Positions 10,278 through 27,042 are shown, counted from the stretch's first letter. The stretch: DNA of 34,610 nt from Gemmatimonadota bacterium (GCA_039589355.1 JBDHHM010000014.1:1-34610), one strand, 5' to 3'. The notes: generated by a model from the sequence alone, not told the origin. Made by a program: numbers and translations.

Positions 10278-11169
10278 AATACTGGGAATCCGGCGTGCCG
10301 GGGAGTTCCCGGACCTCGCTGAGGTCATGGCTCACGGCGAACAGCTCGTACCGCGCCGGCCTGGTCGGCTGGCCGGGTATCTGAAAGAATACGGCGACGA
10401 CGGTTCTGTCATCCTCAGTCGCCCGATGCGACCTGATGCCTGTCCAAACCTTCCACTCGGGTCGGCGAGCGGCCAAATAGTCTCGTGCCGCTCGGCAGGC
10501 GGCCGTCGTCCCGACCAGGCGGCGGAGCCAGTTCCACGTCACGGTAGTCCCCTTTGATCTGGTAGCGAGGGTGGCCTCCGGGAGAAGCTCGAGCCAGTCC
10601 TCTGTGACCCGTGACTCGACTTTCCCGGCCAATTGCCCAAGAAACCAGCGGACGGGCCTTCGGCTCTTTCCCGCGGCCGAGCCGTCGATCACGAGGAAGG
10701 TCAGGAACAGATCCCAGTCACGCACGTTTTCGATGAGCGCGGCGAGCCGATCTTCGCTGAAGCGGCCCCGGGTGTGAAACTGCTGCCAGAGAGCGAATGG
10801 CTCATCGTGGTACTGTACAACGGCCAGTAGGGTGGGATCATTGCAGTAGTCAGAGAGGAACTCGCGTGCTAGCGACGCGTGGCTTCGTGCGTGAGCGATG
10901 GGAACGTTCGGCTCGGCAAGGCCCTTGAATGTGTCATGCGTGTGCATGATGATCATGAGCTTCCAGTAGTCCCCATCACGCAGTTCGGCTCGAACCAGAC
11001 CGAGGCTCCGTTCGAGCTCGTCTATGTGGGCGCGAACGGTTCCCTCCGGATGGCCTGGCCGGGGCTCGCCCCAGTCTAGCCCCTTCCGGTACCTCGGGTC
11101 CCGCCTGATCGCCTGAAGTACGGCTTCATAGTCGGTAGCGGGTCCCGCCGCCGTGGTGGAACGGTCAAT
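10258..11169 (-). CDS. HD-domain-like phosphohydrolase with extra C-terminal domain; start codon unresolved
   Basis: Motifs GHPEGTVRAHIDEL, LMIIMHTHDTFKG and YHDEPF. There is no in-frame ATG/GTG/TTG between the upstream gene's stop (11172) and the first His motif. The upstream part of the 468-aa ORF overlaps a better-coding frame. Confidence 0.5.
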   Translation of the reverse strand: MDRSTTAAGPATDYEAVLQAIRRDPRYRKGLDWGEPRPGHPEGTVRAHIDELERSLGLVRAELRDGDYWKLMIIMHTHDTFKGLAEPNVPIAHARSHASLAREFLSDYCNDPTLLAVVQYHDEPFALWQQFHTRGRFSEDRLAALIENVRDWDLFLTFLVIDGSAAGKSRRPVRWFLGQLAGKVESRVTEDWLELLPEATLATRSKGTTVTWNWLRRLVGTTAACRAARDYLAARRPEWKVWTGIRSHRATEDDRTVVAVFFQIPGQPTRPARYELFAVSHDLSEVRELPGTPDSQYFIRGYK

Positions 11170-11171
11170 CT

Positions 11172-11570
11172 TCAGAAGACCCGCCGAAGTAGGATGACAT
11201 GGCCCGCGATTAGGATGAGAAAGAGGAGCATCTCGAGCACCGTAGGCATGCAGCCGAAATCGTAGAATCCGCCGTATTTGCGCTCTACGAGTCCGGAACA
11301 TTGGGGGCACTTCTTGGGAATCGGGACCAGCGCGTCGCGCAGCCAGACCAGAAAACCCTGGAGGAGGACGATTAGAACGAGCTCGGCGAGAGGGACGACC
11401 ACCCAGTACCACCAGCGAAGGCCGAGTGCATCCGACAACGCTGGAACCATGAAAGCGGTTGCCGCAGCGGCCAGCCCGATCCAAAAGAGAATGGACGTTG
11501 GGGTTTGCCGCGCGGACTCGTAGCCGCACTGTGTGCAGCCGAACCCCACCACTTGGCCTGAGAAGAACAT
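11172..11570 (-). CDS. Membrane protein with split zinc-ribbon (CTQC ... CPQC)
   Basis: GAGGAGG lies upstream of ATG 11570. Third codon positions are strongly G/C-biased in this frame. Three hydrophobic segments and two CxxC pairs. Confidence 0.6.
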   Translation of the reverse strand: MFFSGQVVGFGCTQCGYESARQTPTSILFWIGLAAAATAFMVPALSDALGLRWWYWVVVPLAELVLIVLLQGFLVWLRDALVPIPKKCPQCSGLVERKYGGFYDFGCMPTVLEMLLFLILIAGHVILLRRVF

Positions 11571-11611
11571 CCCTGTTGTACCTCCTCGGATCGCTCTGCT
11601 GGCGCTGCCGC

Positions 11612-12280
11612 CTACTCGAGTAGCCTCTGCCTAGCGGTCTCGAGCGCCTCGCCGAAGGCGACATTCAGCTCCACGGTCCGATATCCTTCGGCGATGCACT
11701 CGAACATGTCGTCGTGGAACGCCAGCAGGTAGTGCTCGTACTGGTTCCAGCGGTACGGATCGTAGTTATCGTGAACGCCATTGATAGTTCTCTGTAGGGC
11801 GATCCAGCGGGAGTTCTGCACGAGGTAGGCGCCGTAGCCGCCGAAACCCCGACCGGTCAGCGGGTGTCCTCCGAACACCTCGTCGTTGGGTCCACCGAAT
11901 CGGTGGGCGTAACAGCGCTCGAACTCGACCAGCGCGATTCGCGAACGGCTGTCACTGCGTGGATCGGCGACCGTCACGTACGTGCCGTCCCAAGCCGGAT
12001 CTGGGTCCGCTATGTAGTACAGCAGGAGCGTCCGATGGCCGGAAGAGAGGACATGAGGCGATGGTGCCCCTACGTCCCAGGGCAACGGCCAATCGGATTC
12101 GATCGCGGCCTCTTCCCCGGTGGCGAGCGCCAGTGCACGCTCCGCGCTCAGGCAAGCTTCGCGTGCAAGAGAGTACTCATCCAGGCCGCCGCTCGCACTC
12201 TCGCCGGTCATAGCCCGTAGCGCTCTGTCGAGACGTTCCCTGGCCGACCGCAGTCTGCGCTCGAGTTCCTCCACGTCCAT
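11612..12280 (-). CDS. Hypothetical protein (N-terminal coiled-coil-like region plus uncharacterised globular domain)
   Basis: 222-aa ORF with AGGGG upstream. No recognisable catalytic motif. Distinctive segments are YLVQNSRWI and HYLLAFHDDMFECIAEGY. Confidence 0.6.
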   Translation of the reverse strand: MDVEELERRLRSARERLDRALRAMTGESASGGLDEYSLAREACLSAERALALATGEEAAIESDWPLPWDVGAPSPHVLSSGHRTLLLYYIADPDPAWDGTYVTVADPRSDSRSRIALVEFERCYAHRFGGPNDEVFGGHPLTGRGFGGYGAYLVQNSRWIALQRTINGVHDNYDPYRWNQYEHYLLAFHDDMFECIAEGYRTVELNVAFGEALETARQRLLE

Positions 12281-12313: not shown

Positions 12314-13726
12314 TCAGTGAGTGGTTTGAGCGCCGCCCCAGACCGTGAACAGTATCTGGAACGCGACCGGGCCACCTGTCACGCTCGGACTGGGCAACTG
12401 ACACAACTCGTCGCGCAGTTTCTGGAGCGTGTCGTCGGAGATGCCGGGTCGTGAGGCCATCGTCACGCTGGCGCTCCAGGCACCCGGTTCGATCTCGAGC
12501 TGTAGCATCAGCTCCTGTCCGGCGCCCGGCGGCTGTGTGCCGAAATAGCTCACGACGGTGTTCTTGATCACGTCGACGTAGGTCGCCAGCTCATCCACTC
12601 TCAGCCGCCGCGCGATCTCGTGCTCGGGTGTGAGCAGTACAATGCGCTTAACGTCGGTGGGCCCGACCTCCGTCTCGGGACCGCCTTCGGGCTCGTGGGC
12701 GCGCCAGCCTCCCTCGGCACGGTAGGTCAGGCCGTCCACCGGGTTCGAGTAGTCGCAGGCCAGCCACTCGAGGGCGAAGCCGAACCCACTGTTGCTGGGT
12801 CGCACTTCGACGGGGCTCTTGCTCGTGAGTCCGTTCTTGATGGCCTGCCACGACAGATCTCGTAGCGACATCATGAGCCCGTCTTCGACGATCAGGCCTT
12901 CGTCCTCGTTCTGGCCGGGCGCGAGTGCCAGGAAGCAACCGCTCAAGCGTGATCCTGCAGCGTTGGGCGCCGTGATCGCCTTCGCGTCTGTCTGTCCCGG
13001 CTTCCACACGAAGCAACCGTCGGCGGTGGGCTCGAGCTCGGTTAGCAGAACAGGTGGCGAGCTGGCGGGGAACTCGGCGAGCTGCTTCAGCAAACGCGCT
13101 CCGCTTTCTTCGGTCAGGCGGAACACGATCCGATCGCGTTCGAGACAGGCCGTCATCCCGGGCGCGTGGATGCGGGTCAACTGTGCGACGATGCTGTCTT
13201 CCAGTAGTCGGGCCATCGGCAGGCCGGGTCGTGCGCGATCGGCCCACGGCGGCCAGGGGTAGTGCGAGTAGGCCTGGCCCAGGCGACCGAGTACCCTCGT
13301 AATGCCGAAGGCCATGGCGGCCTCGATCTCTTCATCCCGGAGAAGGATGGCGGCGAGTCCGTCGGGGAATTCGACGCCCTCGAGGTACTCTCGGGTCGAG
13401 GTGTAAACGATGCCGCGGTGGCCCAGGAGCCCGGTGCCGCCGAGCTCGGTAATGTCGCCCGAGTCTGCCAATCTCCCGGCCTTGGCGAGCCGGAGCACTT
13501 CCACGAAAAGCCGTAGCGGCTCCTTGGGAAAATCGGCCGGCCCCTCCCCCGGATCGACTCGGACTGTCAGCAGGAGCTCGCGCTGGCCGTGCGCCGACAG
13601 GCCGTCGCTGGTATAGGACCAGCAAGGTATCGATGCGACCTGGTGCAGCCAGACGCGCGCCGACAGCTCGCCTGGGATCAGATCGAAGTGGAGGGGGAAG
13701 TCGCCGGGATCCGGGTTGGCAGGCAT
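12314..13726 (-). CDS. Hypothetical protein with SUFU-like (suppressor-of-fused family) N-terminal domain
   Basis: ATG 13726 has GAGGAG upstream and is preferred over GTG 13768. The N-terminal part (CWSYTSDGLSAHGQRELLLTV ... YPWPPWADRAR) resembles bacterial SUFU-domain proteins. The C-terminal region of about 280 aa was not recognised. Confidence 0.55.
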   Translation of the reverse strand: MPANPDPGDFPLHFDLIPGELSARVWLHQVASIPCWSYTSDGLSAHGQRELLLTVRVDPGEGPADFPKEPLRLFVEVLRLAKAGRLADSGDITELGGTGLLGHRGIVYTSTREYLEGVEFPDGLAAILLRDEEIEAAMAFGITRVLGRLGQAYSHYPWPPWADRARPGLPMARLLEDSIVAQLTRIHAPGMTACLERDRIVFRLTEESGARLLKQLAEFPASSPPVLLTELEPTADGCFVWKPGQTDAKAITAPNAAGSRLSGCFLALAPGQNEDEGLIVEDGLMMSLRDLSWQAIKNGLTSKSPVEVRPSNSGFGFALEWLACDYSNPVDGLTYRAEGGWRAHEPEGGPETEVGPTDVKRIVLLTPEHEIARRLRVDELATYVDVIKNTVVSYFGTQPPGAGQELMLQLEIEPGAWSASVTMASRPGISDDTLQKLRDELCQLPSPSVTGGPVAFQILFTVWGGAQTTH

Positions 13727-13877
13727 CCCTGGCTCCTCGTTCGTATAGTGGGCAGTTTCGGCTGGCACCCATCAGGCAAGCGGAGGTGCCCGGGGAGGGG
13801 TAGAATGTGGTACTACTCGGACCGGGGAATGGTTCCGGGCGGCGCCCGTCGTCGCCCGCTGCAGCGAGGAGTGACAG

Positions 13878-14522
13878 ATGCCGCAGGACAGATCCGGCCA
13901 GGGCGAGCGCCGCTTGATACGCACGGCCGACATTTCGGGCAAGGAGCGCTACCAGCTTCTCACGTCGCTCGTCGTACCCAGGCCGATCGGCTGGCTCTCG
14001 ACCTTTGCGAAGGATGGGACGGCGAACCTGGCGCCGTTCAGCTACTTCGCAGCGCTGGCCGACACGCCGATGCTCGTCGGCGTCTCCATCGGCTGGCGCG
14101 CCGGCGAACCGAAGGACACGCTCCGCAATATCCTGGACACGCGGGCCTTCTGCATCAACGTGGTCACCGAGCCGCAGCTGGAAGCGATGAACGCCACTTC
14201 AGGGGACTATCCGCGCGGGGTAGATGAGTTCAAGGTGGCTGGCCTGCCCATGGCGAACGGGTCGCTGGTTCGAGCGCCCTATGTCGAAAACTGCCCCGCC
14301 GTGATGGAATGCCGGCTCTACAAAGAGGTCGCGCTGGGGACGGCATCGAACAACCTTTTGTTGGGAGAGGTTCTGGCGGTGCGGCTCGGGTCTGAGCTAC
14401 GACTGGTTCCCGGTACCCAGCACGTCGAGACGGAATCGCTGAAGCCGGTCGGCCGCCTGTTCGCCAGCGGCTACACGCTGCTCGGCAAGATCAAGACGGT
14501 GCCGCGCCCCCAGGTGGGCTGA
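13878..14522 (+). CDS. Flavin reductase family protein (FMN-binding split barrel)
   Basis: AGGAG lies 7 nt upstream. Family motif LLTSLVVPRPIGWLSTFAKDGTANLAPFSYF. Confidence 0.8.
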   Translation: MPQDRSGQGERRLIRTADISGKERYQLLTSLVVPRPIGWLSTFAKDGTANLAPFSYFAALADTPMLVGVSIGWRAGEPKDTLRNILDTRAFCINVVTEPQLEAMNATSGDYPRGVDEFKVAGLPMANGSLVRAPYVENCPAVMECRLYKEVALGTASNNLLLGEVLAVRLGSELRLVPGTQHVETESLKPVGRLFASGYTLLGKIKTVPRPQVG

Positions 14523-14567
14523 AATGTCGACCCGGATCCTGCATCCCATGCCTGAAAAGACATGATA

Positions 14568-14842
14568 GCCCGGCCTCCGGGGGTTGGGCGTCGGGGCGGT
14601 CGTCTCGCTCCGGCCTCCCCCGCGCTCACGGCTGCGCCGTGATCGCGGGCTCGCTAACACCAGCTCCGCTCGACGACCCGCCCCGACGCCTGTAACCGGT
14701 GGGTGAGCACCAACCGCTGCTCACCACTACTGTCCCCCTGGTCGCGTATTCGCGGGGGATGCTTCTGGTCCCCGCCTCGATCCGGGCCGGGAGGAAAGCC
14801 GGGGGACCGACGAGCGAAGTTGGTTTTAGCGACCCGGCTCCG
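14568..14842 (+). repeat. Structured intergenic repeat, copy B (about 275 bp; inverted relative to copies A and C on the window strand)
   Basis: The reverse complement carries the same identical blocks as copies A and C. It starts 45 nt after the flavin reductase stop codon, in the same relative orientation as A to pfkA and C to the 1141-aa gene. Confidence 0.9.
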
Positions 14843-15122
14843 CCCTCGCCGCTCGAGGCGCAGGAGATCGTGGCGAGGGTGGCCAACGCGACGAGTAGCG
14901 ACTGAGAGGTTCTCATTTCCATACCTCAACGGTTTCGGCGCGTGAGCGGCGAGGTGTTGCACATTGGGTGGCGAACCCGGCGGTAGGGTTGGGTGGTTAC
15001 TAGGAAACAGGGCGCCATCCGGAGCACAGCCTCGCTGACGATAGGCGAAACGTGAGCGAAGTGGCCGGGGCTGCCCGCACGCACTGGCAAGGGGCCCTGG
15101 GGGCGAGCATTCTTATGAGCCA

Positions 15123-15830
15123 ATGCAAAGAGTAGTAGTACCAGAGCTGGTTGACCAGCGGTCGCCTGATCCGGCTCTTCTGCGTGAGAGCCTGGACGAT
15201 CTGGCATGGATGAATCGCTACCTGGGTGTGACTGCCGGCGTCGTACGCCGGCTCGAGCGGCTGTTGGAGGGCCGCTCGCTCGAGCGGCTCCGCGTGCTGG
15301 ACGTCGGGGCCGGTGGCGCCGACATCCTGGCGGCGCTTGGCCGCTGCTGGGCGCGGCGCGGTGGGCGCTTCGAGGGTGCGGCGCTCGACTTCAGCCGCAT
15401 GACGTCCCGCATCGCCGCGGCGCAGCTCACACAGGGCGATGGGGACGGCCGCATTCGCGCGGTCTGCGGCGATGCCAGAGCGCTGCCGTTCCCGGACGCC
15501 TGTTTTCACGTGACGATTTGCAGCACGTTTCTCCACCATCTCGATGAAGGCGACGCGTTGCGCGCCTTGCGCGAGATGGCGCGGGTCAGCGCACTGGGAA
15601 TGGTTGTCACCGACCTGCGCCGCGGTCGGCCGGGCTTGTTGGCGGCCCGGACGCTGGCGAACACCGTGTGGCGGCGTCATCGCTACACACGGCACGACGC
15701 CACTGCCTCTATGCGCGCCGCCTATTCGATGGTCGAGGTGCAGGAGCTGGCGATGAGAGCCGGGCTGTCGGTGATTGTCGAGCCGCAGCGCTGGTTCCGC
15801 TGGGCACTCTGCTGGAGGCGACCGGGGTGA
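15123..15830 (+). CDS. Class I SAM-dependent methyltransferase
   Basis: Motif I VLDVGAGGADIL, and a post-I acidic residue. Confidence 0.8.
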   Translation: MQRVVVPELVDQRSPDPALLRESLDDLAWMNRYLGVTAGVVRRLERLLEGRSLERLRVLDVGAGGADILAALGRCWARRGGRFEGAALDFSRMTSRIAAAQLTQGDGDGRIRAVCGDARALPFPDACFHVTICSTFLHHLDEGDALRALREMARVSALGMVVTDLRRGRPGLLAARTLANTVWRRHRYTRHDATASMRAAYSMVEVQELAMRAGLSVIVEPQRWFRWALCWRRPG

Positions 15831-17080
15831 AGAGACCCGAGGCCGAGGTCCTGATCGTTGGGGCCGGTCCTGCGGGCGCGGCTCTGGGACTCGAGCTGGC
15901 GCGGCGCGGCCGCGAAGTGCTCATCACGGAAGCTGCGCGGTTCCCCCGGGACAAACCGTGCGGCGACTGTGTAAACCCGGGCGCAGTAGCCGAGTTGGAG
16001 CGCCTCGCCGTTCGCGAGCGATTGCAGGCGAAGCTGGCGCCGAGGCGACTAAGGGGCTGGAGCGTCGAGGCGCCGGACGGTAGCGCCTTCCGGGCGTGCT
16101 TCGGGTCCGACCACGACGGCCGCGCACCGGAAGGTTGGGCGGTGCGTCGTCGCGATTTCGATGCGGCTCTCCTCGAAGAAGCACAGTGCGCCGGTGTCGG
16201 TGTGCGCTTCGGCGTGCGGGTCTACGACCTCATGCGGGCAGGTGGCCGGATCGCCGGCGTCGCGGCGCGCCAGGGAGCCGACCGAAGTGAGATCCGGGCG
16301 AGGTTCGTGGTGGGAGCCGACGGCCTCCGTTCCGTGGTGCAGCGCCGCCTGCGCTTGAAGCGCCGGCCTGCGAGACTGCGGAAGATCGCCCTGGTCGGGC
16401 ATCTCGCCGGCCCGGATGGCGAGGACGACTTCGGCGAGCTGAGGGTGCGCGGTGGCCGGACCTGCGGGTATGCGCCACTGCCTCACGGGGGCAACGTCAC
16501 CCTGGTCATACCTGAGGACGAAGCGGCCGAAGCCGGCGGCTCGCCGCGCGACTTCTTCTCGGGTGCTCTCTCGCAGTTCCCCGAAGTGCAGGCCCGCGTC
16601 CGCGCCTCCGGCCTGGAGAAAGCAGTACTGGTGACGGGCCCGTTCGACCGGCCGGTGCGCCGGGCCTGGTCGCCGGGCGCTCTCCTTGTCGGCGACGCGG
16701 CAGGCTACTACGACCCGTTTACGGGCCAGGGTATCTATCAGGCGCTCCGTAGCGCACGACTGGCCGCCGAAGCGATCGATGCCGCTCTTACGGATCCCGA
16801 GAGGGAGACTCACGCGTTGGCGCGGTACGGGCGGCGCATGCGACTCGAGTTCGAGCCGAAGCGTGGCCTGCAGCGCGTAATCGAGGCCGCCGTCAGCCGG
16901 CCCGCCGTCATGTCGCGCCTAATGGTCACGCTGTCGCAGCGCGAGGGCGTCGCAGCCGGTCGTCTGCTCAGGGCGACTGGCGACCTGGTCCACCCGGCTA
17001 CGTTGCTCGACCCTGCGCTCTGGGTACCGCTACTTTCGAGACTGGCATACGGCGAATGGACACACATAACGAGATCGTGA
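15827..17080 (+). CDS. FAD-dependent oxidoreductase, geranylgeranyl-reductase-like family
   Basis: GTG 15827 overlaps the methyltransferase stop codon (GTGA). Motifs VLIVGAGPAGAALGLELARRG (GxGxxG) and DKPCGDCVNPG. Confidence 0.8.
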   Translation: MKRPEAEVLIVGAGPAGAALGLELARRGREVLITEAARFPRDKPCGDCVNPGAVAELERLAVRERLQAKLAPRRLRGWSVEAPDGSAFRACFGSDHDGRAPEGWAVRRRDFDAALLEEAQCAGVGVRFGVRVYDLMRAGGRIAGVAARQGADRSEIRARFVVGADGLRSVVQRRLRLKRRPARLRKIALVGHLAGPDGEDDFGELRVRGGRTCGYAPLPHGGNVTLVIPEDEAAEAGGSPRDFFSGALSQFPEVQARVRASGLEKAVLVTGPFDRPVRRAWSPGALLVGDAAGYYDPFTGQGIYQALRSARLAAEAIDAALTDPERETHALARYGRRMRLEFEPKRGLQRVIEAAVSRPAVMSRLMVTLSQREGVAAGRLLRATGDLVHPATLLDPALWVPLLSRLAYGEWTHITRS

Positions 17081-17517
17081 TGAATGCGTCGCAGGCGCGC
17101 TGCTTCCAGGTGGCGGCCGACGTCGAACGCTGGCCCGAGATTCTCCCCCACTACCGGCGGGTGCGTTTCCGTCGTCGCGACGATTTCGGCGTGGGACTGG
17201 TAGAGATGGCGGCGCGCCGCATGTTCGGCCCGATCGGCTATCCGGTGTGGTGGGTGAGCGAGATGTCGGCCGATGAATCGGTTCCAATTGTTCGCTACAA
17301 ACACGTCGAGGGGATCACGAAGGGGATGGACGTCGAGTGGCGCTTTCACTCCGAGGGCGACACGACGCGGGTGGAGATCGTGCACGACTGGCCCGACGGG
17401 CCGGGCTGGCCGCTGATCGGCCGATTCGCCGCGAACGGCGTTATCGGCCCTGTCTTCATCCACCACGTGGCCGGGATGACTCTGGAAGGGGTAAAAGGAG
17501 CAGCGGAGGAACAGTGA
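17056..17517 (+). CDS. SRPBCC (START / polyketide-cyclase-like) family protein
   Basis: Product of about 150 aa with VERWPEILPHY, typical of the family. Alternative starts GTG 17077 and ATG 17080 overlap the upstream stop codon at 17078-17080. Confidence 0.7.
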   Translation: MDTHNEIVMNASQARCFQVAADVERWPEILPHYRRVRFRRRDDFGVGLVEMAARRMFGPIGYPVWWVSEMSADESVPIVRYKHVEGITKGMDVEWRFHSEGDTTRVEIVHDWPDGPGWPLIGRFAANGVIGPVFIHHVAGMTLEGVKGAAEEQ

Positions 17518-18782
17518 TCATATCGAGAAAGGACACCGGCAATGGGCGGCGCCGTGTCGCTGTGACGGGGATCGGGTGCATCACGCCCACGGGGGTTGGA
17601 GCGGACGGCCTCTGGGCCGGCCTGCGTCGCGGCGCTTCTGCGGTGCGCCGCATCACACGCTTCGATCCTGAACCGTTCCGCAGTCACATGGCGGCGGAGG
17701 TCGATGGATTCGACCCGGCAGATCACATGGGGGCGAAGCGGGCGAAGCGGCTCGACCGTTTCGGCCAGTTCAGTGTTGCGGCGGCGCGTATGGCATTGGA
17801 CGATGCGGAGCTCGACCCGGCGAACCTGGCGCGCGATCGTGTAGCGGTTCAGATGGGCTCGGCGCTCGGCGGGGTAGCGTACGCCGAGGAGCAGCACCAG
17901 GCGTACGTATCGGAGGGCCCTACGGGGGTCAACCCGCTTCTCGCACTCGCCGTGTTCGCGGGGGCCGCGAGCTGCAACGTAGCCATCGAGTTCGGCTTCA
18001 CCGGCCCGAACTCGACCAACGGCATGAGCTGCGCCTCGGGCGCCATCGGCATCGGCCACGGATTTCGCTTGATTCGTGACGGCGAAGCGGACGTGGCGCT
18101 GGCCGGCGGTGCCGAGTGCCCGCTATCGCCGCTGTCTTATGGCGCATTCGCGCTCATCCGCGCCATGTCGAAGCGCAACGACGACCCGGCCACGGCCAGC
18201 CGGCCCTTCGACCGGGAGCGTGATGGATTCGTCATGGGCGAAGGGGCTGCGCTGCTCGTCTTGGAGGAGTGGGGCCACGCGGTGAAGCGCGGTGCCCGCA
18301 TCTACGCCGAGCTGTGCGGCTTCGGTACCACCAACGACGGCTATCACATGACGGCGCCGCGGCCGGACGGCGCTCAAGCCGCTCGCGCCGTCGAGCTCGC
18401 TCTGGCGGACGCCGCCTCGGTGGCGGATGAGGTCGAGTATGTGAACGCGCACGCGTCATCGACCCGGCTCAACGATCCGGTCGAGACGAAGGCGATCAAG
18501 TCGGTGCTGGGTGAGCGGGCGTACACGGTGCCGGTGAGCGGCACGAAGGGATACTACGGTCACCCGTTGGGTGCGTCGGGTGCCATCGAGGCGGCGATCT
18601 CGGTTCTCGCCATCGAGCGGGGCTGGCTACCGCCCACGCTCAACCTTCGGGACCCCGATCCCGAGTGCGATCTCGACTACGTGGCCGGCGCCGGTCGCGA
18701 TGCCGACGTCGGCTTTGTCGTATCCAACTCGTTCGGGTTCGGCGGCGTCAACGCCGCCCTTGTTTTCCGTTCTACCGGGTAA
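17514..18782 (+). CDS. Beta-ketoacyl-ACP synthase II-like condensing enzyme
   Basis: GTG 17514 overlaps the SRPBCC stop codon (GTGA). Motifs RVAVTGIGCITP, active-site NGMSCASGA, GYHMTAP, NAHASST, GHPLGASG and SNSFGFGGVNAALVF. Confidence 0.85.
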   Translation: MIISRKDTGNGRRRVAVTGIGCITPTGVGADGLWAGLRRGASAVRRITRFDPEPFRSHMAAEVDGFDPADHMGAKRAKRLDRFGQFSVAAARMALDDAELDPANLARDRVAVQMGSALGGVAYAEEQHQAYVSEGPTGVNPLLALAVFAGAASCNVAIEFGFTGPNSTNGMSCASGAIGIGHGFRLIRDGEADVALAGGAECPLSPLSYGAFALIRAMSKRNDDPATASRPFDRERDGFVMGEGAALLVLEEWGHAVKRGARIYAELCGFGTTNDGYHMTAPRPDGAQAARAVELALADAASVADEVEYVNAHASSTRLNDPVETKAIKSVLGERAYTVPVSGTKGYYGHPLGASGAIEAAISVLAIERGWLPPTLNLRDPDPECDLDYVAGAGRDADVGFVVSNSFGFGGVNAALVFRSTG

Positions 18783-19637: not shown

Positions 19638-21509
19638 ATGCCGGACTTCAGAGCCCTGATCGAGAACGGCAGCGCCCATCTGTTCGATGGCGCCATCGGC
19701 ACCGAGCTATACCAGCGCGGCGTCTTCATCAACGTCTCTTACGACGAAATCAACCTGAAGAGCCCCGAGCTCGTGCGTGAAGTGCACCGCGCCTACCGCG
19801 AGGCGGGTGCCGAGATCCTCGAGACGAATACGTTCGGCGCCAACCGCGTGCGGCTCGACAGGTTCAGTCTCGGCGACCGGGTCGACGACATAAACAGGGC
19901 CGGCGCCGAGTTGGCGCGTGAAATCGCCGCGGACGACCGCTACGTAGCCGGCTCCATCGGGCCGCTGGGCATCCGTATAGAGCCGTACGGGCCTACGGCG
20001 CGTGACGAGGCCCGCGCCTTCTTCCGCGAGCAGGCGCAGGCACTGGCCGCCGGCGGTGCCGACGTCTTCATCATCGAGACGTTCGGCGACCTCTCGGAGA
20101 TCGAGCAGGCGATACTCGGGTGCCGCGACGCCGCTGATCTGCCGATCATCGCCCAGATGGCCGTGAATCCAGACGGGAATACCGCGTACGGCTATGACCC
20201 GGCGCGGATCGCCCACCACCTGGACGAGGCGGGCGCCGACGTTATCGGCCTCAACTGCAGCGTGGGACCGGCGCTCATCCACAAGGCGATCCAGAAGATG
20301 GCGGAGGTAACGAATCGGCCGCTCTCGGCGATGCCGAACGCGGGCCTGCCACGGGAGATCGAGGGCCGCAAGATCTACATGGCGTCGCCCGATTACTTTG
20401 CAAAGTACACGCGCCGACTGATCCAGGCCGGCGCACGCTTCGTCGGCGGTTGTTGTGGAACGACACCGGAGCACATACGCGCCATGGCGGCTCAGGTACG
20501 CGCGCTGCGCCCGGGCCGCCACACGATGGTCGTGGATGCGGTCCGCGACGTGGAACGACGTGAGGCGCATCCCGGGGTCGAGCCCGTCCCCGCAGCCGAG
20601 CGCTCGCAGCTCGGGCGCAAGATCTCAGCCGGCGAGCTGGTTACGAGCGTTGAGATCCTGCCGGCGAAGGGGTGCGATCCGGCCGACGTCCTCGAGAAAG
20701 TGCATGCGCTGAAGGCGGCCGGCGTCGATGCGGTTAACGTGCCCGATGGTCCCCGTGCGATGATGCGGATGGGCGTTCTCGCCAGTTGCGCGATCATCGA
20801 GCGGGAGGTCGGGCTCGAGACGATCCCCCACTACTGCTGTCGCGATAGAAACCTGCTGGGGATGATGAGCGATCTACTGGGCGCCCACGCCCTGGGGCTA
20901 CGCAACCTGCTCATAATCACGGGTGATCCACCGAAGCACGGGCCGTACCCCGACTCTACGGCGGTCTTCGACATCGACTCAGTCGGGCTCACCAACCTGG
21001 TGCGCAAGCTCAACGAGGGACTCGATCTCAGCGATAACTCCCTCGGGTCCGCCACCAGCTTCTTTCACGGGGTGGGCGTGAACCACGCGTCGGTCGATCC
21101 CGACTACGAGATCCATCACTTCGAGTGGAAGGTGGATGCGGGCGCGCAGTTCGCAGTGACGCAACCGATCTTCGACGTCCAGACCTTCCTGGAGTTTCTT
21201 GAGAATATCGACAACGTGCGCATTCCCGTCGTGGCCGCCGTCTGGCCGCTGGTCTCCTACCGCAACGCCGAGTTCATGGCCAACGAGGTGCCCGGCGTGG
21301 TCGTGCCCGACTCGATCCTCGAGCGGATGCAGCGCGCCTCCGAGCGCGGGAAGGACGCGGCGATGGAAGAAGGGCTGGCCATAGCACGCGAGATGGTGGA
21401 AGCGCTCGAGCCCCACGTACAGGGCATACAGGTGAGCGCGCCGTTCGGCAAGGTCGGTTTCGCGCTGCAGGTGTTCGAAGCGCTGGATGGTTGGGAGAAC
21501 CGGGCGTAG
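19638..21509 (+). CDS. yitJ: Bifunctional homocysteine S-methyltransferase / 5,10-methylenetetrahydrofolate reductase
   Basis: The N-terminal Hcy-binding domain has GAIGTELYQRG, ILETNTFGAN, LNCSVGP and GGCCGTTPEHI zinc ligands. The C-terminal half is MTHFR-like (VEILPAKG..., ITGDPPK...). The architecture matches Bacillus YitJ. Confidence 0.9.
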   Translation: MPDFRALIENGSAHLFDGAIGTELYQRGVFINVSYDEINLKSPELVREVHRAYREAGAEILETNTFGANRVRLDRFSLGDRVDDINRAGAELAREIAADDRYVAGSIGPLGIRIEPYGPTARDEARAFFREQAQALAAGGADVFIIETFGDLSEIEQAILGCRDAADLPIIAQMAVNPDGNTAYGYDPARIAHHLDEAGADVIGLNCSVGPALIHKAIQKMAEVTNRPLSAMPNAGLPREIEGRKIYMASPDYFAKYTRRLIQAGARFVGGCCGTTPEHIRAMAAQVRALRPGRHTMVVDAVRDVERREAHPGVEPVPAAERSQLGRKISAGELVTSVEILPAKGCDPADVLEKVHALKAAGVDAVNVPDGPRAMMRMGVLASCAIIEREVGLETIPHYCCRDRNLLGMMSDLLGAHALGLRNLLIITGDPPKHGPYPDSTAVFDIDSVGLTNLVRKLNEGLDLSDNSLGSATSFFHGVGVNHASVDPDYEIHHFEWKVDAGAQFAVTQPIFDVQTFLEFLENIDNVRIPVVAAVWPLVSYRNAEFMANEVPGVVVPDSILERMQRASERGKDAAMEEGLAIAREMVEALEPHVQGIQVSAPFGKVGFALQVFEALDGWENRA

Positions 21510-21510
21510 G

Positions 21511-21588
21511 CCGGGGGTCGGAGCCGGGGGACCGTTCGCTCCGGTCGACCCGGGGGTCGGAGCCGGGGGACCGCTCGCTCCGGCCGAC
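21511..21588. repeat. Two tandem 39-bp units
   Basis: CCGGGGGTCGGAGCCGGGGGACCGTTCGCTCCGGTCGAC (21511-21549) versus CCGGGGGTCGGAGCCGGGGGACCGCTCGCTCCGGCCGAC (21550-21588), with 2 differences. The core GGAGCCGGGGGACCG is the reverse complement of the CGGTCCCCCGGCTCC block inside the large repeat. Confidence 0.85.
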
Positions 21589-21656
21589 CCGGCAGTCGAG
21601 GTCGGTGGTTGCTGCGAGTACGTCGGGTAGCTCACCCGCGGACTTGGCCCATAAAT

Positions 21657-21921
21657 CGGAGCCGGGTCGCTAAAACCAGCTCCGCGAGTCGGTCCCCCGG
21701 CTCCTCGCGGTCAGGACAGAACGGCGACTAGGGCATCCCCGGCTGCACGCGACTAAGGCGACAGTGGCCAAGCAGCGGCTGACAATCACCCAACGGTTGC
21801 GGGCGTCGGGGTGTTTCGTCGAGCGGAGCTGGTGTTAGCGAGCCCGCGCTCACGGGTGACGTGAGCGCGGGGGAGGCCGGAGCGAGACGACCACCCCGAC
21901 GCCCAACCCCGGATGCCGGGC
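21657..21921 (-). repeat. Structured intergenic repeat, copy C (about 265 bp)
   Basis: Carries the same identical blocks as copies A and B. It ends at the base before the stop codon of the 1141-aa gene. Confidence 0.9.
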
Positions 21922-24900
21922 TTAACGGCAGCCGACGAAACGCACGCCGCTCTGGCGGTCGCCGATGACCTCGGCCAGACTCGCCAGCACGTAGTCGATA
22001 TCCTCGTCGGTATTGCCGACGCCGAGGGACATCCGGATGGCGCAGTGTGCGTCCTCGTCGCTCAGTCCCATCGCCACCAGTACGTGGGACGGTTCGGGGT
22101 TGCCCGATTTGCAGGCGGAGCCGGACGAGAAGAAGACGCCGTGCCGGTCGAGGAACAGCGCGAGCGACTCGCCGCGCATCTCGGGCAGCGTCATGTTGAG
22201 CGTGTTGGGGAGCCGCTGCGTCGCATGTCCGTTGAGCTTCGCCGCCGGGACGATCTGCCTGATTCCCGCCTCCAGTCTGTCGCGCAGCTCTCGCACCCGC
22301 TCCGGCTCCCTGTGGTTCAAGCGGCGCGTGCCGAGCTCGCAGGCCTTACCGAAGCCCACAATGCCCGGGACGTTCTCGGTGCCGGCGCGCAGCTTCCGCT
22401 CCTGACCGCCGCCGTGGATGACCGGCGACAGCTCGACGCCCTGGCGCACGTAAAGGGCGCCTACCCCTTTGGGCCCGTGGATCTTGTGGCTGGAGACAGA
22501 GAGCAGATCGACGCCCAGCTCCGCAACATCGATGGGTAACTTGCCGAGTCCCTGCACCGCATCGGTGTGAAACAGCGCACCGTTCTGGCGAGCGACATGA
22601 GCCAGTTCAGCGATCGGATTGATCGTGCCCACCTCGCTGTTCGCCATCATCAAGCTGACGAGGATCGTCTGTGGGGTGATGGCGCCGGCGAGTGCCTGGG
22701 GGTGCACCATTCCGTCGGAGTCGACGTCCAGGCAAGTGATCTCGAACCCGAACTCCTTGAGCGACTCGCAGGTCTGGAGGACGGCCGGATGCTCGACCGT
22801 CGACGTGATGATGTGGTTCCCCGCGTCGCGCTTCGCGAACGCCACGCCCTTGATCGCCAGGTTGTCCGACTCGGAGCCGCCGCCTGTGAACACGATGCGG
22901 CGCGCCGTGCAGTTCAGAGCCTGGGCCACCTTCCTGCGCGCCGCCTCCACCGCATCACGCGCCTCGACCCCGCGGCTGTGGATGCTGGACGGGTTGCCGT
23001 ACTCTTCTTCCAAGAACGGTAGGATCGTTTCGAGTACCTCGGGGTCCACCGGCGTCGTGGCATTGTGATCCAGGTAGACCCGTCTCCGCGGCTTCTGCGG
23101 CCTAGCGATCTCGACCACCGCCTCGCTCTCGTCTTCGGCGACACGCCCGGAGCCGTTCGAGCCCTCCGCCCTGACCACTTCGCAGAGCAGCGCCTTGTAG
23201 ACGGGGAAGCCCGAGATCGGGTCGTAGCGACTGAGGTCCGTGAGATCGTTGACGTTGCACTCCTGCCATTCCTTCGAGCCCAGTGGGCCGCCCCCTCCCA
23301 TGTTGGCGTCGATGGCGCCCTCGACGATGTCGGCGGTGACCCGCGCCTGGAAGCGCACTCTGCCGCGCGGAGTCGCCACCCAGACCCAGTCGCCGCTCTC
23401 GATGCCGCGCTCCGCCGCATCTCGTGTGTTCATAGTCACTTGCGGGACCGGCGCCTTGCGGCTCAGGCCCTGAACTCCGTGATGCTGTGTTCGGAAGTCG
23501 GCGAAGATGCGCGCACCCGAGTTGAAAACGAGAGGGTGACTCTCCGCCAGCGCCGGCTGCACCAACGGCCCTTCGCCCGGCTCGGTGTAGACGGGGAGCG
23601 CGTCGTAGCCGTGCTCCTCGAGAATGCTGGAGGCGATCTCGAACTTGCCTGATGGCGTGGCGAAACCGGGCTCGCCGTCCTCGCGCAACATCCCCTTCTC
23701 CCACTTCTTGTACTGCATCATCGCTGTGGGGATCTGCACCTCGCCGCCTGCCTCGCGCACATCCTCCAACGTGAAGCCCGAGCCTTCGAGAACGTGGCGC
23801 AGCAGGTCTTCCTCGGTGCGCGGATAGGAATCGCCGTATCCCAGGCGGTCCGCCAGCTCCGTGAGGATGAGGTAATCGTTCCGCGCCTCCCCTACGGGCT
23901 CGGTCAGCTTCTCGCGGATCTTGAAGATCGGGCCGTAGGTCATGTACGAGGTGATCTCGTACATGGTGGTGGCCGGCAGAACGATATCGGCGTAGGCGGA
24001 GTCGGCCGTATGGTGGCGGTTGATGGTGACGAGGAAGTCGAGGGCGCTTAGTGTGTCGCGCCAGACCTGCGACTCCGGCCAGGCGGTGATGATAGAGCCG
24101 CCCAGGACGATGAGTCCGCGGATCTTGTACGGTTCGCCTTTCAGCACCGAGTCGGGAAGCGCGATCGCGTGTGACTCGCCCCGGTACATACTATAGACGG
24201 GAAAACGATCGCGGCCCAGAGCCTTCTTCACGTTCGGATTCGGGATCAGCCCGGCGCGGTTGATCGGGAACTGGTTCTCCCGCATGCGAATGGCGAGGCC
24301 GCCGGGGACATCGAGCTGGCCGGCCAGGGCCCAGAGCGTGAAGACCGCGCGGATCGCCTGCACGCCGCTGTCGGAATACTCGAGCCCCGTGTACATGATG
24401 GGGCAGGCGCCGCGGGCCCGGGCGATGCGGCGAGCCAGTTCGACGACCTTTGCCGCCGGTACTCCGGTGATTTCCTCCACCACCTCCGGTCGATAGTGCT
24501 GCACGTACTGGGCTAACTCATCGAAGCCTACGGTCCAGTGCTTGACGAACTCCTCGTCGTGGAGCTCTTCCTCGATCAAGAGGTTGATCATGCCGAGCGC
24601 TAACGCGCCGTCGGTGCCGGGGCGAATAGGGATCCACTCGGCGTCGACCTCGCGGGCCGTATGGTTGCGTTGCGGGTCGATGCAGACCACTTCGGCGCCA
24701 CGGAGTACGGCCCGCTTAATCTGCTCGTGGGCCAGCGGCGGCGAGTCGGTCGCCGGGTTGGCGCCCCAGATCACGATGAGCTCTGCGTTCTCGATGTCGT
24801 GATCCATCGTGTGGTAGTACTCGCCGAATGTGACGTGCGGCGCGATCATCGCGAACGACACGTAACAGAGCGCACCCACACCCAGTGTGTTGGGCGAGCC

Positions 24901-25347
24901 GAAGGGGAAGAGGACGCTCGAGGCGGATGAGATGGCTACACCCGCAGGCTGGAAGACATCGCAGAGCGCCAGCTCGAAGCTGCCGCGGCCTGTGTAGATT
25001 GCGGTCGCTTCCGGGCCCGACTCGTCTCTTATCTTACTGAGGTTCTCGACGATGATCTCGAATGCGTCGTCCCAGCCGATGCGCTCGAACTCGTGCGTGC
25101 CCTTGAGGCCCACACGGCGCATCGGGTACTGGAGCCGATCGGGGTCGTGCACGATCTCCGATGAGTGAGCGCCGTTGGTGCAGATCATCCCCAGCGGGTG
25201 ATCCTGCGGCCGCACGCCCGCTATCCGCCCGGCCTCCAGGGTGACGGTCACCCAGCAACCGGCGGGGCAGATGCCGCAGAGGCCATCTCGCTCTTCGATG
25301 CGAGCACGCTTGGCCGCCTCACGACGGCTCATGGTGGCCTTATGCAT
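21922..25347 (-). CDS. Fusion of molybdo/tungsto-pterin oxidoreductase module and NifS/IscS-type cysteine desulfurase (metallopterin-dependent ergothioneine synthase-like)
   Basis: Single 1141-aa ORF. Residues about 1-745 carry the CGICPAGC [4Fe-4S] motif and bis-MGD family layout. Residues about 757-1141 carry VYLDHNATTP, SSHKIHGPKG (PLP lysine) and SSGSACKSG (catalytic cysteine). The junction is near nt 23079. The ATG lies 3 nt after the egtD-like stop codon. Confidence 0.85.
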   Translation of the reverse strand: MHKATMSRREAAKRARIEERDGLCGICPAGCWVTVTLEAGRIAGVRPQDHPLGMICTNGAHSSEIVHDPDRLQYPMRRVGLKGTHEFERIGWDDAFEIIVENLSKIRDESGPEATAIYTGRGSFELALCDVFQPAGVAISSASSVLFPFGSPNTLGVGALCYVSFAMIAPHVTFGEYYHTMDHDIENAELIVIWGANPATDSPPLAHEQIKRAVLRGAEVVCIDPQRNHTAREVDAEWIPIRPGTDGALALGMINLLIEEELHDEEFVKHWTVGFDELAQYVQHYRPEVVEEITGVPAAKVVELARRIARARGACPIMYTGLEYSDSGVQAIRAVFTLWALAGQLDVPGGLAIRMRENQFPINRAGLIPNPNVKKALGRDRFPVYSMYRGESHAIALPDSVLKGEPYKIRGLIVLGGSIITAWPESQVWRDTLSALDFLVTINRHHTADSAYADIVLPATTMYEITSYMTYGPIFKIREKLTEPVGEARNDYLILTELADRLGYGDSYPRTEEDLLRHVLEGSGFTLEDVREAGGEVQIPTAMMQYKKWEKGMLREDGEPGFATPSGKFEIASSILEEHGYDALPVYTEPGEGPLVQPALAESHPLVFNSGARIFADFRTQHHGVQGLSRKAPVPQVTMNTRDAAERGIESGDWVWVATPRGRVRFQARVTADIVEGAIDANMGGGGPLGSKEWQECNVNDLTDLSRYDPISGFPVYKALLCEVVRAEGSNGSGRVAEDESEAVVEIARPQKPRRRVYLDHNATTPVDPEVLETILPFLEEEYGNPSSIHSRGVEARDAVEAARRKVAQALNCTARRIVFTGGGSESDNLAIKGVAFAKRDAGNHIITSTVEHPAVLQTCESLKEFGFEITCLDVDSDGMVHPQALAGAITPQTILVSLMMANSEVGTINPIAELAHVARQNGALFHTDAVQGLGKLPIDVAELGVDLLSVSSHKIHGPKGVGALYVRQGVELSPVIHGGGQERKLRAGTENVPGIVGFGKACELGTRRLNHREPERVRELRDRLEAGIRQIVPAAKLNGHATQRLPNTLNMTLPEMRGESLALFLDRHGVFFSSGSACKSGNPEPSHVLVAMGLSDEDAHCAIRMSLGVGNTDEDIDYVLASLAEVIGDRQSGVRFVGCR

Positions 25348-25350
25348 GGA

Positions 25351-26400
25351 TCATCGAGTTGCCGACGGATAGGCGGCGCGGATCAGCGTGTCGTCGGTGC
25401 GCTCGAGGAGCAGGAGCGCGAACCATTTCTTCTCGTCGGTGAAAACGCGCTTGAGGTCGAAGCCGAACGCGGCCAACTCGCGCTGCAACTTCGACAGGCG
25501 GTACTTGCGGCTGATCTCGATCATAATGCGCTCGCCGCTGCCTATCTCGAAGGTCTGGTCGAGCGGTTCGACGTGAAGCTGTTGGTGCGTATGGAAGCGC
25601 GCGTAGATCTCGATGCGCTCGAGCACTGGATTCCAAACCGCGTGATGCTTGATCTGTGAGAGGTCGAGCGCGGCGCCCAGCTCGCGATTGATGCGGGCGA
25701 AGTAGTTGTTCGTGAACCTCGCGGTGACTCCGGCAGCATCGTTGTACGCCGCCTCCACGACGTCGACATCCTTCACCAGGTCAACGCCGAGCAGGAAGAA
25801 ATCGCCCGCCGGGAGATGGTCGGCGACGCTGCGCCAGAATGACGTGGTCTCCGCCTCGTTGAAGTTGCCGATGCTGCTGCCGAGGAAGATGAGTATCTGT
25901 GGCGACAGCTGGCGCAGCACGGGGAAGGCGCTGCGATAGGTCCCATTGATCCCGGTAAAATCGACGTCCGCGAAGCTCTCGGCGATGGACCGGCTCGCCG
26001 CAAGCAGCGCGCTACCGCTCACGTCCACCGGGACGTAACGCACCGGTTCTTCGCCACGGGAATAGGCGGAGAGCAGATACTCGGTCTTTACCGAGTAGCC
26101 GGAGCCCAGCTCGACCAGGGTGACCGGGCCGGTGAACCGCCGGATCTCGGCGGCGTGCTCCGCCAGGATGCCCGCCTCGGTGCGCGTCGGGTAGTACTCG
26201 GGCTGCCGGGTGATCTCCTGGAACAGTCGGCTACCCTCGGCGTCGTAGAGGAACCGGCAGTGGAGCCATTTCGGTTCATCGCTCAGCCCGGCAGCCACAG
26301 ATCTCGCGAACGCCTGCAGGGACTCGCTGGTGCCCGGGGCCTGCACGAGTACGGCGCCGGATCCGACGGCTTCCTGGAAGCGGGTCGGGAAATCAGACAT
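25351..26400 (-). CDS. egtD: L-histidine N-alpha-methyltransferase (EgtD/EanA type)
   Basis: Motifs FLYDAEGSRLFQEITRQPEYYPTRTEAGIL, LVELGSGYSVKT, YVPVDVS and FLGSSIGNF. Confidence 0.85.
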   Translation of the reverse strand: MSDFPTRFQEAVGSGAVLVQAPGTSESLQAFARSVAAGLSDEPKWLHCRFLYDAEGSRLFQEITRQPEYYPTRTEAGILAEHAAEIRRFTGPVTLVELGSGYSVKTEYLLSAYSRGEEPVRYVPVDVSGSALLAASRSIAESFADVDFTGINGTYRSAFPVLRQLSPQILIFLGSSIGNFNEAETTSFWRSVADHLPAGDFFLLGVDLVKDVDVVEAAYNDAAGVTARFTNNYFARINRELGAALDLSQIKHHAVWNPVLERIEIYARFHTHQQLHVEPLDQTFEIGSGERIMIEISRKYRLSKLQRELAAFGFDLKRVFTDEKKWFALLLLERTDDTLIRAAYPSATR

Positions 26401-26799
26401 GGGCTTGCAAGATAGGGTCAGGATTGACTCATTGCCAACGATCTGGTTGCCTTCCCATCCCTCTCAATGCAGACGGCGAGCCGAGAGTTCCCGGTGAACA
26501 GATGTGTGTTATGAGGAATCATAAGCGTTACAAGAGATCGCTGTTGGGCTGAGGCTCGGCCCTGGGGTTCCCGCCACTCCGGAGTTTCGAGCCGTGGTTC
26601 TTCTGTCTCCTACGGTTACGCCTGCCAGTAGTGGCGGCGTCCAGCCGGCCTTCCTCGCCCATACGCTCTCAGAGATCCGTTGACCGGGCATTCCGGGGAT
26701 GCCCCGCTGGTGGTGTCGTCGGAGTCTGCGCCTGAGCCCTCCGCTCGGCGGGACCCGGTCCGGGCGCTCGTTGGACGTCAGGGGCTCGGAGGGACCGCC

Positions 26800-27042
26800 A
26801 TGGAGAAACATCAAGTCGACATATTGCGCTCGGGCTTCCTCACCGATGGTCGCTTCTTCAGCATCGAGGCCGGCCGCATTAAGGGCGGCAGCTGGGGCGC
26901 CTGGATGGTGTGCGTGCCGTCTGAGGCCGAAATCCCTCAGGACGAAACACACGCGCTGCATGTTGCGGGCCGCAAGGAACTACTTCGCAGATGGGCAGAG
27001 GACCTCAGCGAGGAAGAGATAGAGGGTCTTGCGGAAATATGA
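26800..27042 (+). CDS. Hypothetical 80-aa protein
   Basis: ATG 26800 is preceded by GGAGGGA. The acidic C-terminus is plausible for a real protein. The upstream part of ORF 26680.. lacks coding character. Confidence 0.4.
   Translation: MEKHQVDILRSGFLTDGRFFSIEAGRIKGGSWGAWMVCVPSEAEIPQDETHALHVAGRKELLRRWAEDLSEEEIEGLAEI

Follow-up and report, generated by a model that had tools for sequence, protein, structure and literature searches.

Metallopterin-dependent ergothioneine synthase (MES) was described in 2022 (Beliaeva & Seebeck, JACS Au; PMC9516567) from a set of 55 genomes without EgtB and EanB in which a histidine methyltransferase is co-encoded with a fusion of a metallopterin module and a cysteine desulfurase. 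Four members of the family, CaMES from Caldithrix abyssi, AbMES, EaMES and hvMES, make ergothioneine from trimethylhistidine in Escherichia coli, and it is for these four that conversion of trimethylhistidine plus cysteine, with Mo or W as the metal, has been shown (PMC9516567). Here we describe a two-gene locus of this type in a 34,610-nucleotide stretch of DNA from a Gemmatimonadota bacterium (GCA_039589355.1, JBDHHM010000014.1:1-34610), the whole of which is referred to below as the window. The locus pairs a predicted egtD with a gene for a single metallopterin::cysteine-desulfurase fusion protein and, judged from its sequence, is very probably a functional EgtD + MES ergothioneine operon.

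Co-expression of CaMES with the EgtD of Mycobacterium smegmatis in E. coli gave 200–300 μM ergothioneine with no hercynine added (PMC9516567). In CaMES, the mutations C153S, K952A, C1074S and C1135S reduced output by ∼2000-fold or to almost nil, C1097S had a two-fold effect only, and sulfur transfer must take place within one polypeptide (PMC9516567). The closest solved relative of the CaMES N-terminal module is acetylene hydratase (PMC9516567). An earlier note on this DNA had given a C. abyssi synthase of this build as its background, in agreement with the publication. The CaMES sequence used here is that of the C. abyssi locus L047, a 1136-aa open reading frame (ORF) whose cysteines and lysine coincide exactly with the published numbering. 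The four tested sequences were machine-read from the supplement (PMC9516567), and identities to them are lower bounds.

The two genes of the window lie on the minus strand, with MES downstream:

25351–26400, minus strand: egtD, putative S-adenosylmethionine (SAM)-dependent L-histidine N-alpha-methyltransferase that would make trimethylhistidine (hercynine); 349 aa, ATG start
21922–25347, minus strand: MES, putative metallopterin-dependent ergothioneine synthase, a single fusion protein; 1141 aa, one uninterrupted ORF, ATG start

Both reading frames appear in the ORF list exactly as the earlier note had drawn them. The 3-nt spacer that it described separates the egtD stop codon (TGA, 25351–25353) from the MES start codon (ATG, 25345–25347), and every motif that it quoted is found (FLYDAEGSRLFQEITRQPEYYPTRTE, LVELGSG, YVPVDVS, CGICPAGC, SSHK and SSGSAC). 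The junction between the two MES domains likewise falls near nt 23079, with residue 757 encoded at 23077–23079, and contains neither a stop nor a frameshift. A Joint Genome Institute (JGI) contig, L001 (Ga0452215_008801, metagenome 3300041080), matches the window at 99.6%–100% identity and is 100% identical over 21826–25571, which spans the whole MES gene. The same single fused ORF is present in 69/80 homologous loci from other genomes; this and the other locus counts below refer to the 80 best homologous loci. The ratio of nonsynonymous to synonymous substitution rates (dN/dS), calculated against five orthologs, is 0.11–0.17 for MES and 0.13–0.23 for EgtD, and both genes are under purifying selection. 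Because of the identity with L001, the 69 fused loci and the low dN/dS, the long ORF is neither a chance frame nor an assembly artifact.

The division of the protein proposed in the earlier note, a bis-molybdopterin guanine dinucleotide (bis-MGD) module in the first ∼745 residues and a class-V aminotransferase/NifS-IscS cysteine desulfurase in the last ∼385, is borne out by Pfam profiles for Molybdopterin (residues 71–501, 6.7e-42), Molydop_binding (618–719, 1.2e-19) and Aminotran_5 (757–1120, 1.1e-83), and by the SSHK and SSGSAC motifs of the second module. The modules and their functional residues are listed below, with conservation counted over the window MES and 69 complete homologs (n = 70):

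23173–25347, minus strand: N-terminal bis-MGD (Mo/W) metallopterin module, residues 1–∼725; assigned by Pfam, with acetylene hydratase (2e7z) as best solved relative
25180–25278, minus strand: four-cysteine [4Fe-4S] motif, C24, C27, C31 and C56 (CaMES C14, C17, C21 and C48); kept in 69/70
24865–24867, minus strand: Cys161, predicted Mo/W ligand (CaMES Cys153), in ‘GVGALCYVSFAM’; kept in 70/70
23080–23172, minus strand: low-complexity inter-domain linker, residues ∼726–756, AEGSNGSGRVAEDESEAVVEIARPQKPRRR; between the Pfam domain ends at 719 and 757
21925–23079, minus strand: C-terminal class-V pyridoxal phosphate (PLP) cysteine desulfurase module of NifS/IscS type, residues 757–1141; Aminotran_5, 1.1e-83
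22483–22485, minus strand: Lys955, predicted PLP Schiff-base lysine (CaMES Lys952); kept in 70/70
22111–22113, minus strand: Cys1079, predicted persulfide-forming catalytic cysteine (CaMES Cys1074); kept in 70/70
22042–22044, minus strand: Cys1102 (CaMES Cys1097, of two-fold effect when mutated in CaMES); kept in 66/70
21928–21930, minus strand: Cys1140, penultimate residue (CaMES Cys1135, the essential relay cysteine of the C-terminal tail); placed by alignment to CaMES

All nine family-defining residues of CaMES are identical in the window MES. Alignment of the two proteins, as the earlier note had proposed, runs end to end with 64.1% identity over 1132 aligned positions, and in full-length BLASTP comparisons the window MES is at least 55%–64% identical to the four active enzymes. 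It ends in ‘...RFVGCR’, and a ‘-CR’ terminus is found in 67/69 complete homologs. The linker, by comparison, varies in both length and sequence between homologs.

Among solved structures, the N-terminal module matches acetylene hydratase best (2e7z, 6.9e-68, residues 23–678). The cluster and ligand cysteines align in this comparison, which the earlier note had also suggested, and Cys161 falls on the tungsten-ligand cysteine of acetylene hydratase. The C-terminal module matches cysteine desulfurases in the PDB at 1e-110 to 1e-95. Such likenesses, together with those to the thiosulfate reductase PhsA and to FdhF and a score close to the NifS cutoff (TIGR03402, 516.9 versus 530.75 bits), would also suit an ordinary molybdoenzyme, be it an acetylene hydratase, a formate dehydrogenase or a thiosulfate/polysulfide reductase, that carries a housekeeping Fe-S cluster desulfurase as a fused domain. 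We consider this very improbable, since every molybdoenzyme family model scores far under its cutoff (Fdh-alpha, 266 versus 666 bits; PhsA, 240 versus 694 bits). The window also encodes no electron-transfer or membrane-anchor partners near MES, and reading the sequence by eye, without a predictor, we saw no hydrophobic twin-arginine translocation (Tat) signal region after the N-terminal ‘SRRE’. Directly after the second cluster cysteine, the window has Pro28 (‘CGICPAGC’) where acetylene hydratase has an aspartate (‘CQSCDINC’), its catalytic Asp13; because of this replacement, the window enzyme is not an acetylene hydratase. Housekeeping NifS and IscS proteins are stand-alone, ∼380–400 aa long and above their equivalog cutoffs, whereas the window module is fused, slightly under the NifS cutoff and well below those of the IscS models (396–400 bits versus 548–643). 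The MES-specific ‘-CR’ tail and the linkage to EgtD argue further for an MES.

The claim of a histidine N-alpha-methyltransferase was well founded. The 349-aa protein matches the Pfam family Methyltransf_33 (1e-101) and passes the equivalog cutoff of the NCBIfam model TIGR03438 egtD_ergothio (318.7 > 290.9 bits), while the sister EasF model stays below its own (170.5 < 205.55). It aligns without gaps to the crystal sequences of M. smegmatis EgtD over 309 positions with 41.7% identity, each window residue carrying the EgtD number plus 13. In EgtD structures, histidine is contacted by Tyr39, Phe47, Tyr56, Thr163, Asn166, Tyr206, Thr213, Glu282 and Ser284 (PMC8593015). Eight of these are identical in the window protein (Y52, F60, Y69, N179, Y219, T226, E295 and S297, equivalent to Y39, F47, Y56, N166, Y206, T213, E282 and S284), and the sole change among the nine is the conservative replacement of Thr163 by Ser176. 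From the equivalog score and the pocket residues, the protein is assigned as an EgtD-type histidine N-alpha-methyltransferase.

One pocket difference bears on the product. Ile265 of the window protein corresponds to Met252 in M. smegmatis EgtD, a residue that influences substrate choice together with Glu282. This substitution, and the weaker matches of the desulfurase module to selenocysteine lyases (PDB 3gzc, 7e-65; NF040779 SclA, 1.9e-30), would be expected if the locus made a related compound instead of ergothioneine, such as selenoneine from selenocysteine or the 2-thio derivative of another betaine. Such a product is very improbable. Glu282 is kept (as Glu295), as are Thr213, Asn166 and the other histidine contacts bar one; the EgtD cutoff is passed and that of EasF failed; CaMES, with which the window MES shares 64% identity, was shown to use cysteine for ergothioneine synthesis; and no selenium-metabolism genes occur among the scanned ORFs of the window.

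The near-identical contig L001 differs from the window within egtD, where an in-frame deletion of 81 nt (window 25570–25650; L001 9777–9778) removes residues 251–277, ‘KHHAVWNPVLERIEIYARFHTHQQLHV’, and leaves a 322-aa product. It also lacks ∼65 nt at window 21762–21825. The JGI call of a 322-aa EgtD on L001 might be read as the choice of a later start codon; direct comparison rules this out and shows the in-frame deletion. The deletion may reflect a strain in which EgtD is crippled, or a collapse during assembly. It is also what would be expected of a locus that is decaying or non-functional in the population, which we regard as extremely unlikely: egtD in the window is intact, of canonical length and gap-free against the crystallized EgtD, the MES genes of both contigs are 100% identical, and dN/dS is well below 1 for both proteins.

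In the proposed pathway, EgtD would convert L-histidine and three molecules of SAM to N-alpha-trimethylhistidine (hercynine), and MES would then place sulfur on C2 of the imidazole ring. The PLP module would take sulfur from L-cysteine as a persulfide on Cys1079, with release of alanine. Cys1140, a residue of the flexible C-terminal tail, would receive this sulfur from Cys1079 within the polypeptide and deliver it to the Mo or W center of the bis-MGD module, which is predicted to be liganded by Cys161 with the [4Fe-4S] cluster (C24, C27, C31 and C56) nearby. A metal-bound sulfido ligand, M(VI)=S, would be attacked by trimethylhistidine, ergothioneine would depart, and the reduced M(IV) center would be re-sulfurized by the next persulfide. 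The sufficiency of two enzymes, the requirement for cysteine, the intramolecular sulfur transfer and the catalytic cycle are taken from the CaMES paper.

Two further cysteines of the metallopterin module are almost invariant: Cys129 (24961–24963; CaMES C121) is kept in 70/70 sequences and Cys722 (23182–23184; CaMES C714) in 69/70. The position of Cys129 is a non-cysteine in acetylene hydratase, and C121 and C714 are neither discussed nor mutated in the MES paper (PMC9516567). Both might serve in the persulfide relay, at its end closest to the metal.

The metallopterin step is reversible, as CaMES K952A shifts 34S from ergothioneine onto trimethylhistidine (PMC9516567). The enzyme might thus act in vivo mainly in reverse or in exchange, salvaging or removing sulfur from imported ergothioneine. 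We judge this very unlikely. The desulfurase is intact and fused, with all relay cysteines, and egtD is tightly linked and under selection; both make sense only if they supply sulfur and hercynine, respectively, that is, in the direction of synthesis. In addition, the window encodes neither a transporter for ergothioneine nor an ergothionase-like protein.

The earlier note had also stated that the window lacks genes of the egtB, eanB or ovoA type, and no FGE-sulfatase, DinB_2 or rhodanese domain is found among its scanned ORFs. A six-frame tblastn search of the window with an EgtB-type query gave a best E value of 0.24, and the JGI gene calls for L001 include no EgtB/OvoA- or EanB-type gene. 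Its description of a complete ergothioneine pathway stands insofar as EgtD and MES carry the expected sequence features and two genes suffice in published work (PMC9516567); completeness, like the absence of further ergothioneine genes, can be asserted for the 34.6-kb window only, and the phrase was too broad in that respect.

The locus has the gene order, domain architecture, full-length homology and functional residues of characterized MES systems, together with conserved synteny and purifying selection, and it is on these that we base our high confidence in the EgtD + MES ergothioneine operon. Several points weigh against it. The activity of the window MES would follow by homology from that of the tested enzymes CaMES, AbMES, EaMES and hvMES. 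The Molybdop_Fe4S4 profile, which the earlier note had proposed alongside the three that matched, reaches 18.1 bits at residues 22–67, below its Pfam gathering score of 22.7; the four cluster cysteines are nevertheless kept. The difference at Ile265 in the EgtD pocket belongs here as well. No molybdenum cofactor (Moco) biosynthesis or molybdate/tungstate uptake genes, which would supply the cofactor, lie within the 34.6-kb window. The MES catalytic cycle is termed tentative by its own authors (PMC9516567). Finally, AbMES, the nearest tested relative, is the least productive of the four in E. coli (0.4 μM ergothioneine, compared with 370–420 μM for CaMES; PMC9516567), and likeness to AbMES is therefore no predictor of high heterologous activity.

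A database search returned >120 full-length fused homologs with 67%–96% identity, the closest named ones being proteins from Gemmatimonadota metagenome-assembled genomes (MAGs). In public databases the window protein and its relatives carry only desulfurase or aminotransferase names (‘cysteine desulfurase NifS’, ‘IscS subfamily cysteine desulfurase’, ‘aminotransferase class V-fold’). With the metallopterin module as query and one genome per species, relatives are found in at least 509 species-representative genomes from >10 phyla. Among the matches listed, the closest (82%–93%) are Gemmatimonadales/Gemmatimonadota MAGs, including the closed chromosome CP070815.1 and Ca. Kutchimonas denitrificans. 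These are followed by relatives in Acidobacteriota, Desulfobacterota/Geobacterales, Myxococcota, Planctomycetota (Scalindua, Brocadiaceae), Nitrospirota, Actinomycetota, Calditrichota and others. The module occurs in the cultured Geobacterales Geomonas paludis Red736, Geomonas anaerohicana Red421 and Pelotalea chapellei DSM 13688, and also in MAGs labeled Myxococcales, Thermoleophilia, Acidimicrobiia and Magnetococcales.

An EgtD gene adjoins the module on the same strand in 63/80 loci (46 directly upstream, 17 directly downstream), and these span >10 phyla. Of the others, one has EgtD upstream on the opposite strand, one has it farther off, two have none despite adequate flanks, and in 13 the flanks are too short. 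Geobacter sp. SVR, with the same EgtD-MES pairing and an MES 69% identical to that of the window, itself appears in the paper's Table S1, as do proteins of three Gemmatimonadetes MAGs (A0A2D5ZQU6; Gemmatimonas sp. SG8_38_2, A0A0S8G1P3; SM23_52, A0A0S8HDI0) (PMC9516567). The window system is neither a new enzyme class nor new chemistry, and little here is new because MES was published in 2022, Gemmatimonadetes already appear in that table and the module is so widespread at the species level.

Two neighbors of the operon recur in related genomes:

19638–21509, plus strand: MetH-like fusion of homocysteine S-methyltransferase and methylenetetrahydrofolate reductase, 623 aa; convergent with MES
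26716–26958, plus strand: small ORF (∼80 aa) that separates galK from egtD and is divergent from the latter; called in L001

CP070815.1 and Ca. Kutchimonas have the same order of galK, small ORF, egtD, MES and convergent MetH-like/methylenetetrahydrofolate reductase gene, and their MES proteins, 80%–93% identical to that of the window, show no functionally significant difference. An 83-aa gene is called in CP070815.1 at the position of the small ORF, which has no Pfam match in the window. This order is confined to the Gemmatimonadota clade and therefore reflects lineage synteny rather than function. The MetH-like fusion keeps its position in Gemmatimonadota loci with enough downstream flank and not in other phyla. 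A role as SAM-regenerating partner of EgtD is possible but finds no support in synteny across phyla, given the absence of the fusion from the MES loci of other phyla, and lineage synteny is the better explanation.

Several homologous loci depart from the standard arrangement. Locus L005 (11592–15489 of JAJDAO010000021.1, GCA_029261835.1, a ‘Deltaproteobacteria’ MAG; the same locus as L024) has egtD and MES followed on the same strand by an ATP-binding cassette (ABC) ATPase. Further downstream are a fusion of OpuAC and permease domains, of the betaine-transporter type, and a 414-aa protein with DinB_2 and FGE-sulfatase domains, the architecture of EgtB/OvoA. The EgtB-type gene lies four genes downstream of MES, so that a single locus may provide for sulfur insertion both with and without O2, and for transport. 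Since it holds both MES and an EgtB-type gene, absence of EgtB and EanB is not an absolute criterion for the family. Locus L079 (5947–9200 of CAZZCF010000013.1, an uncultured Leptospirales MAG) encodes a stand-alone metallopterin module of 755 aa, 69% identical to that of the window, whose frame closes with a stop codon immediately before EgtD. No NifS-like desulfurase lies within ∼6 kb on either side, and the genes that come next encode an MscS-like channel and an MFS_2 transporter. The unfused form deserves attention, given the need of CaMES for intramolecular sulfur transfer. An apparent ‘triple fusion’ of ∼1670 codons in L065 was discarded as an artifact of a masked run of N. In L064 (8835–9377, a Calditrichota MAG), a frameshift in the MES desulfurase domain marks a pseudogene or a sequencing error, and in L084 the ORF leaves MES after approximately residue 653 and runs into unrelated sequence, which may indicate a chimeric contig.

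The earlier note had rightly raised the lifestyle of the host as a question. The MES paper states that homologs occur ‘exclusively’ in ‘strictly anaerobic’ organisms (PMC9516567). The window host shares 85%–92% identity over syntenic proteins with the MAGs L006, L007 and L009, and a four-gene syntenic block in the same order, at 62%–83% protein identity, with Ca. Kutchimonas denitrificans. Facultative aerobiosis is predicted for the Palauibacterales, the order of Ca. Kutchimonas, nearly all species of which would have complex IV oxidases and respire N-oxides (PMC10469786); CP070815.1 is outside the genome set of that study. By analogy with the order of its syntenic relative, this suggests that the window host is not a strict anaerobe, and the predicted facultative aerobiosis of Palauibacterales would qualify the statement on strict anaerobiosis of MES hosts.

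Elsewhere in the window, a cluster at 13878–18782 that is kept in CP070815.1 encodes a flavin reductase, a UbiE-type methyltransferase, an FAD-dependent monooxygenase (PF01494), a polyketide cyclase and a beta-ketoacyl synthase, and has the appearance of a small pathway to an aromatic polyketide or a quinone-type compound. Flavin monooxygenases of the PF01494 class use O2, and the presence of one here is therefore a weak hint that the host meets oxygen. Whether the operon belongs to a facultatively aerobic, denitrifying-type Gemmatimonadota lineage, with MES as a widespread route of oxic-anoxic gradients and no relic of strict anaerobes, appears to us evenly balanced. If so, the L005 locus would fit organisms that alternate between sulfur insertion with and without O2. 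Should MES be carried and expressed in hosts with terminal oxidases, the account of ergothioneine as an ‘ancient anaerobic relic’ would need qualifying.

A structured repeat of ∼180–270 nt occurs in three copies in the window (21657–21924, 4827–5014 and 14567–14842, the last inverted), which are 80%–82% identical. Each follows a gene closely on its 3′ side, in the same relative orientation: MES, a phosphofructokinase gene (5012–6127, minus strand) and the flavin reductase gene (13878–14522, plus strand). Two copies begin at the stop codon itself, one of these being that of MES. The repeat contains a perfect 10-bp hairpin, CGCGCUCACG-ucacc-CGUGAGCGCG, and folds as RNA with −138.4 kcal/mol and a z-score of −3.0. 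It has no Rfam match. The ∼270-nt copy 3′ of MES has no counterpart in the syntenic spacer of CP070815.1 (22 nt), and the repeat is absent from all other retrieved loci. It may be a repetitive extragenic palindrome (REP)-like or miniature inverted-repeat transposable element (MITE)-like sequence or a 3′ untranslated region element. Directly past the stop codon of the MetH-like gene, at 21515–21595, are two tandem GC-rich units of ∼47 nt (gggggtcggagccgggggaccgYtcgctccggYcgacccg), whose core ‘ggagccggg’ recurs in the hairpin at 21657–21702.

Searches for Moco and SAM riboswitches in the 678 nt upstream of egtD and in the whole window gave no Rfam match at gathering thresholds, and the window contains no tRNAs. 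A scan for promoters and terminators returned a promoter-like site at 26409–26438 (minus strand) at chance level (0.9 expected) and no terminator, and is not used as evidence. The 484-aa ORF at 12314–13768 (minus strand) has as its sole Pfam match SARA_C (2.8e-9), the Smad anchor for receptor activation-like C-terminal domain, a family name linked to eukaryotes. No Pfam match is found for the neighboring 468-aa ORF (10258–11664, minus strand).

The main value of the locus lies in correct annotation, as the desulfurase or aminotransferase names obscure an ergothioneine pathway among Gemmatimonadota of sediments and soils and across many further phyla. For biotechnology, it would offer a further, sequence-diverse two-gene cassette for O2-independent ergothioneine production.

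Compared with the known systems, the window MES has the same two-module build as CaMES (UniProt A0A7V4WV16; 1136 aa versus 1141 aa in the window). The Fe4S4 cysteines, the metal-ligand cysteine, the PLP lysine, the persulfide cysteine, the Cys1097 equivalent and the penultimate cysteine are identical, and both enzymes are encoded beside an EgtD-type methyltransferase. The N terminus of the window MES is 10 residues longer than that of CaMES, a basic extension common to Gemmatimonadota orthologs, and its linker sequence is unlike that of CaMES. The hosts differ too: CaMES comes from a hydrothermal-vent organism, strictly anaerobic according to PMC9516567, whereas the window host is a GC-rich member of the Gemmatimonadota. 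By BLASTP, the nearest of the four tested enzymes is AbMES from Candidatus Abyssubacteria (A0A314NVY7 according to the supplement), with at least 63.7% identity; ‘DGLCGICPAGCWV’ and ‘DHPLGMIC’, near the N terminus, are common to both proteins. The acetylene hydratase of Syntrophotalea (Pelobacter) acetylenica (PDB 2E7Z), the nearest solved relative of the N-terminal module, has no fused desulfurase and catalyzes hydration, in contrast to the C-S bond formation of MES. The routes through EgtB, a non-heme iron, O2-dependent sulfoxide synthase, and the rhodanese-type EanB lead to the same product from the same EgtD/EanA-family first enzyme, but their sulfur-inserting enzymes are unrelated to MES.

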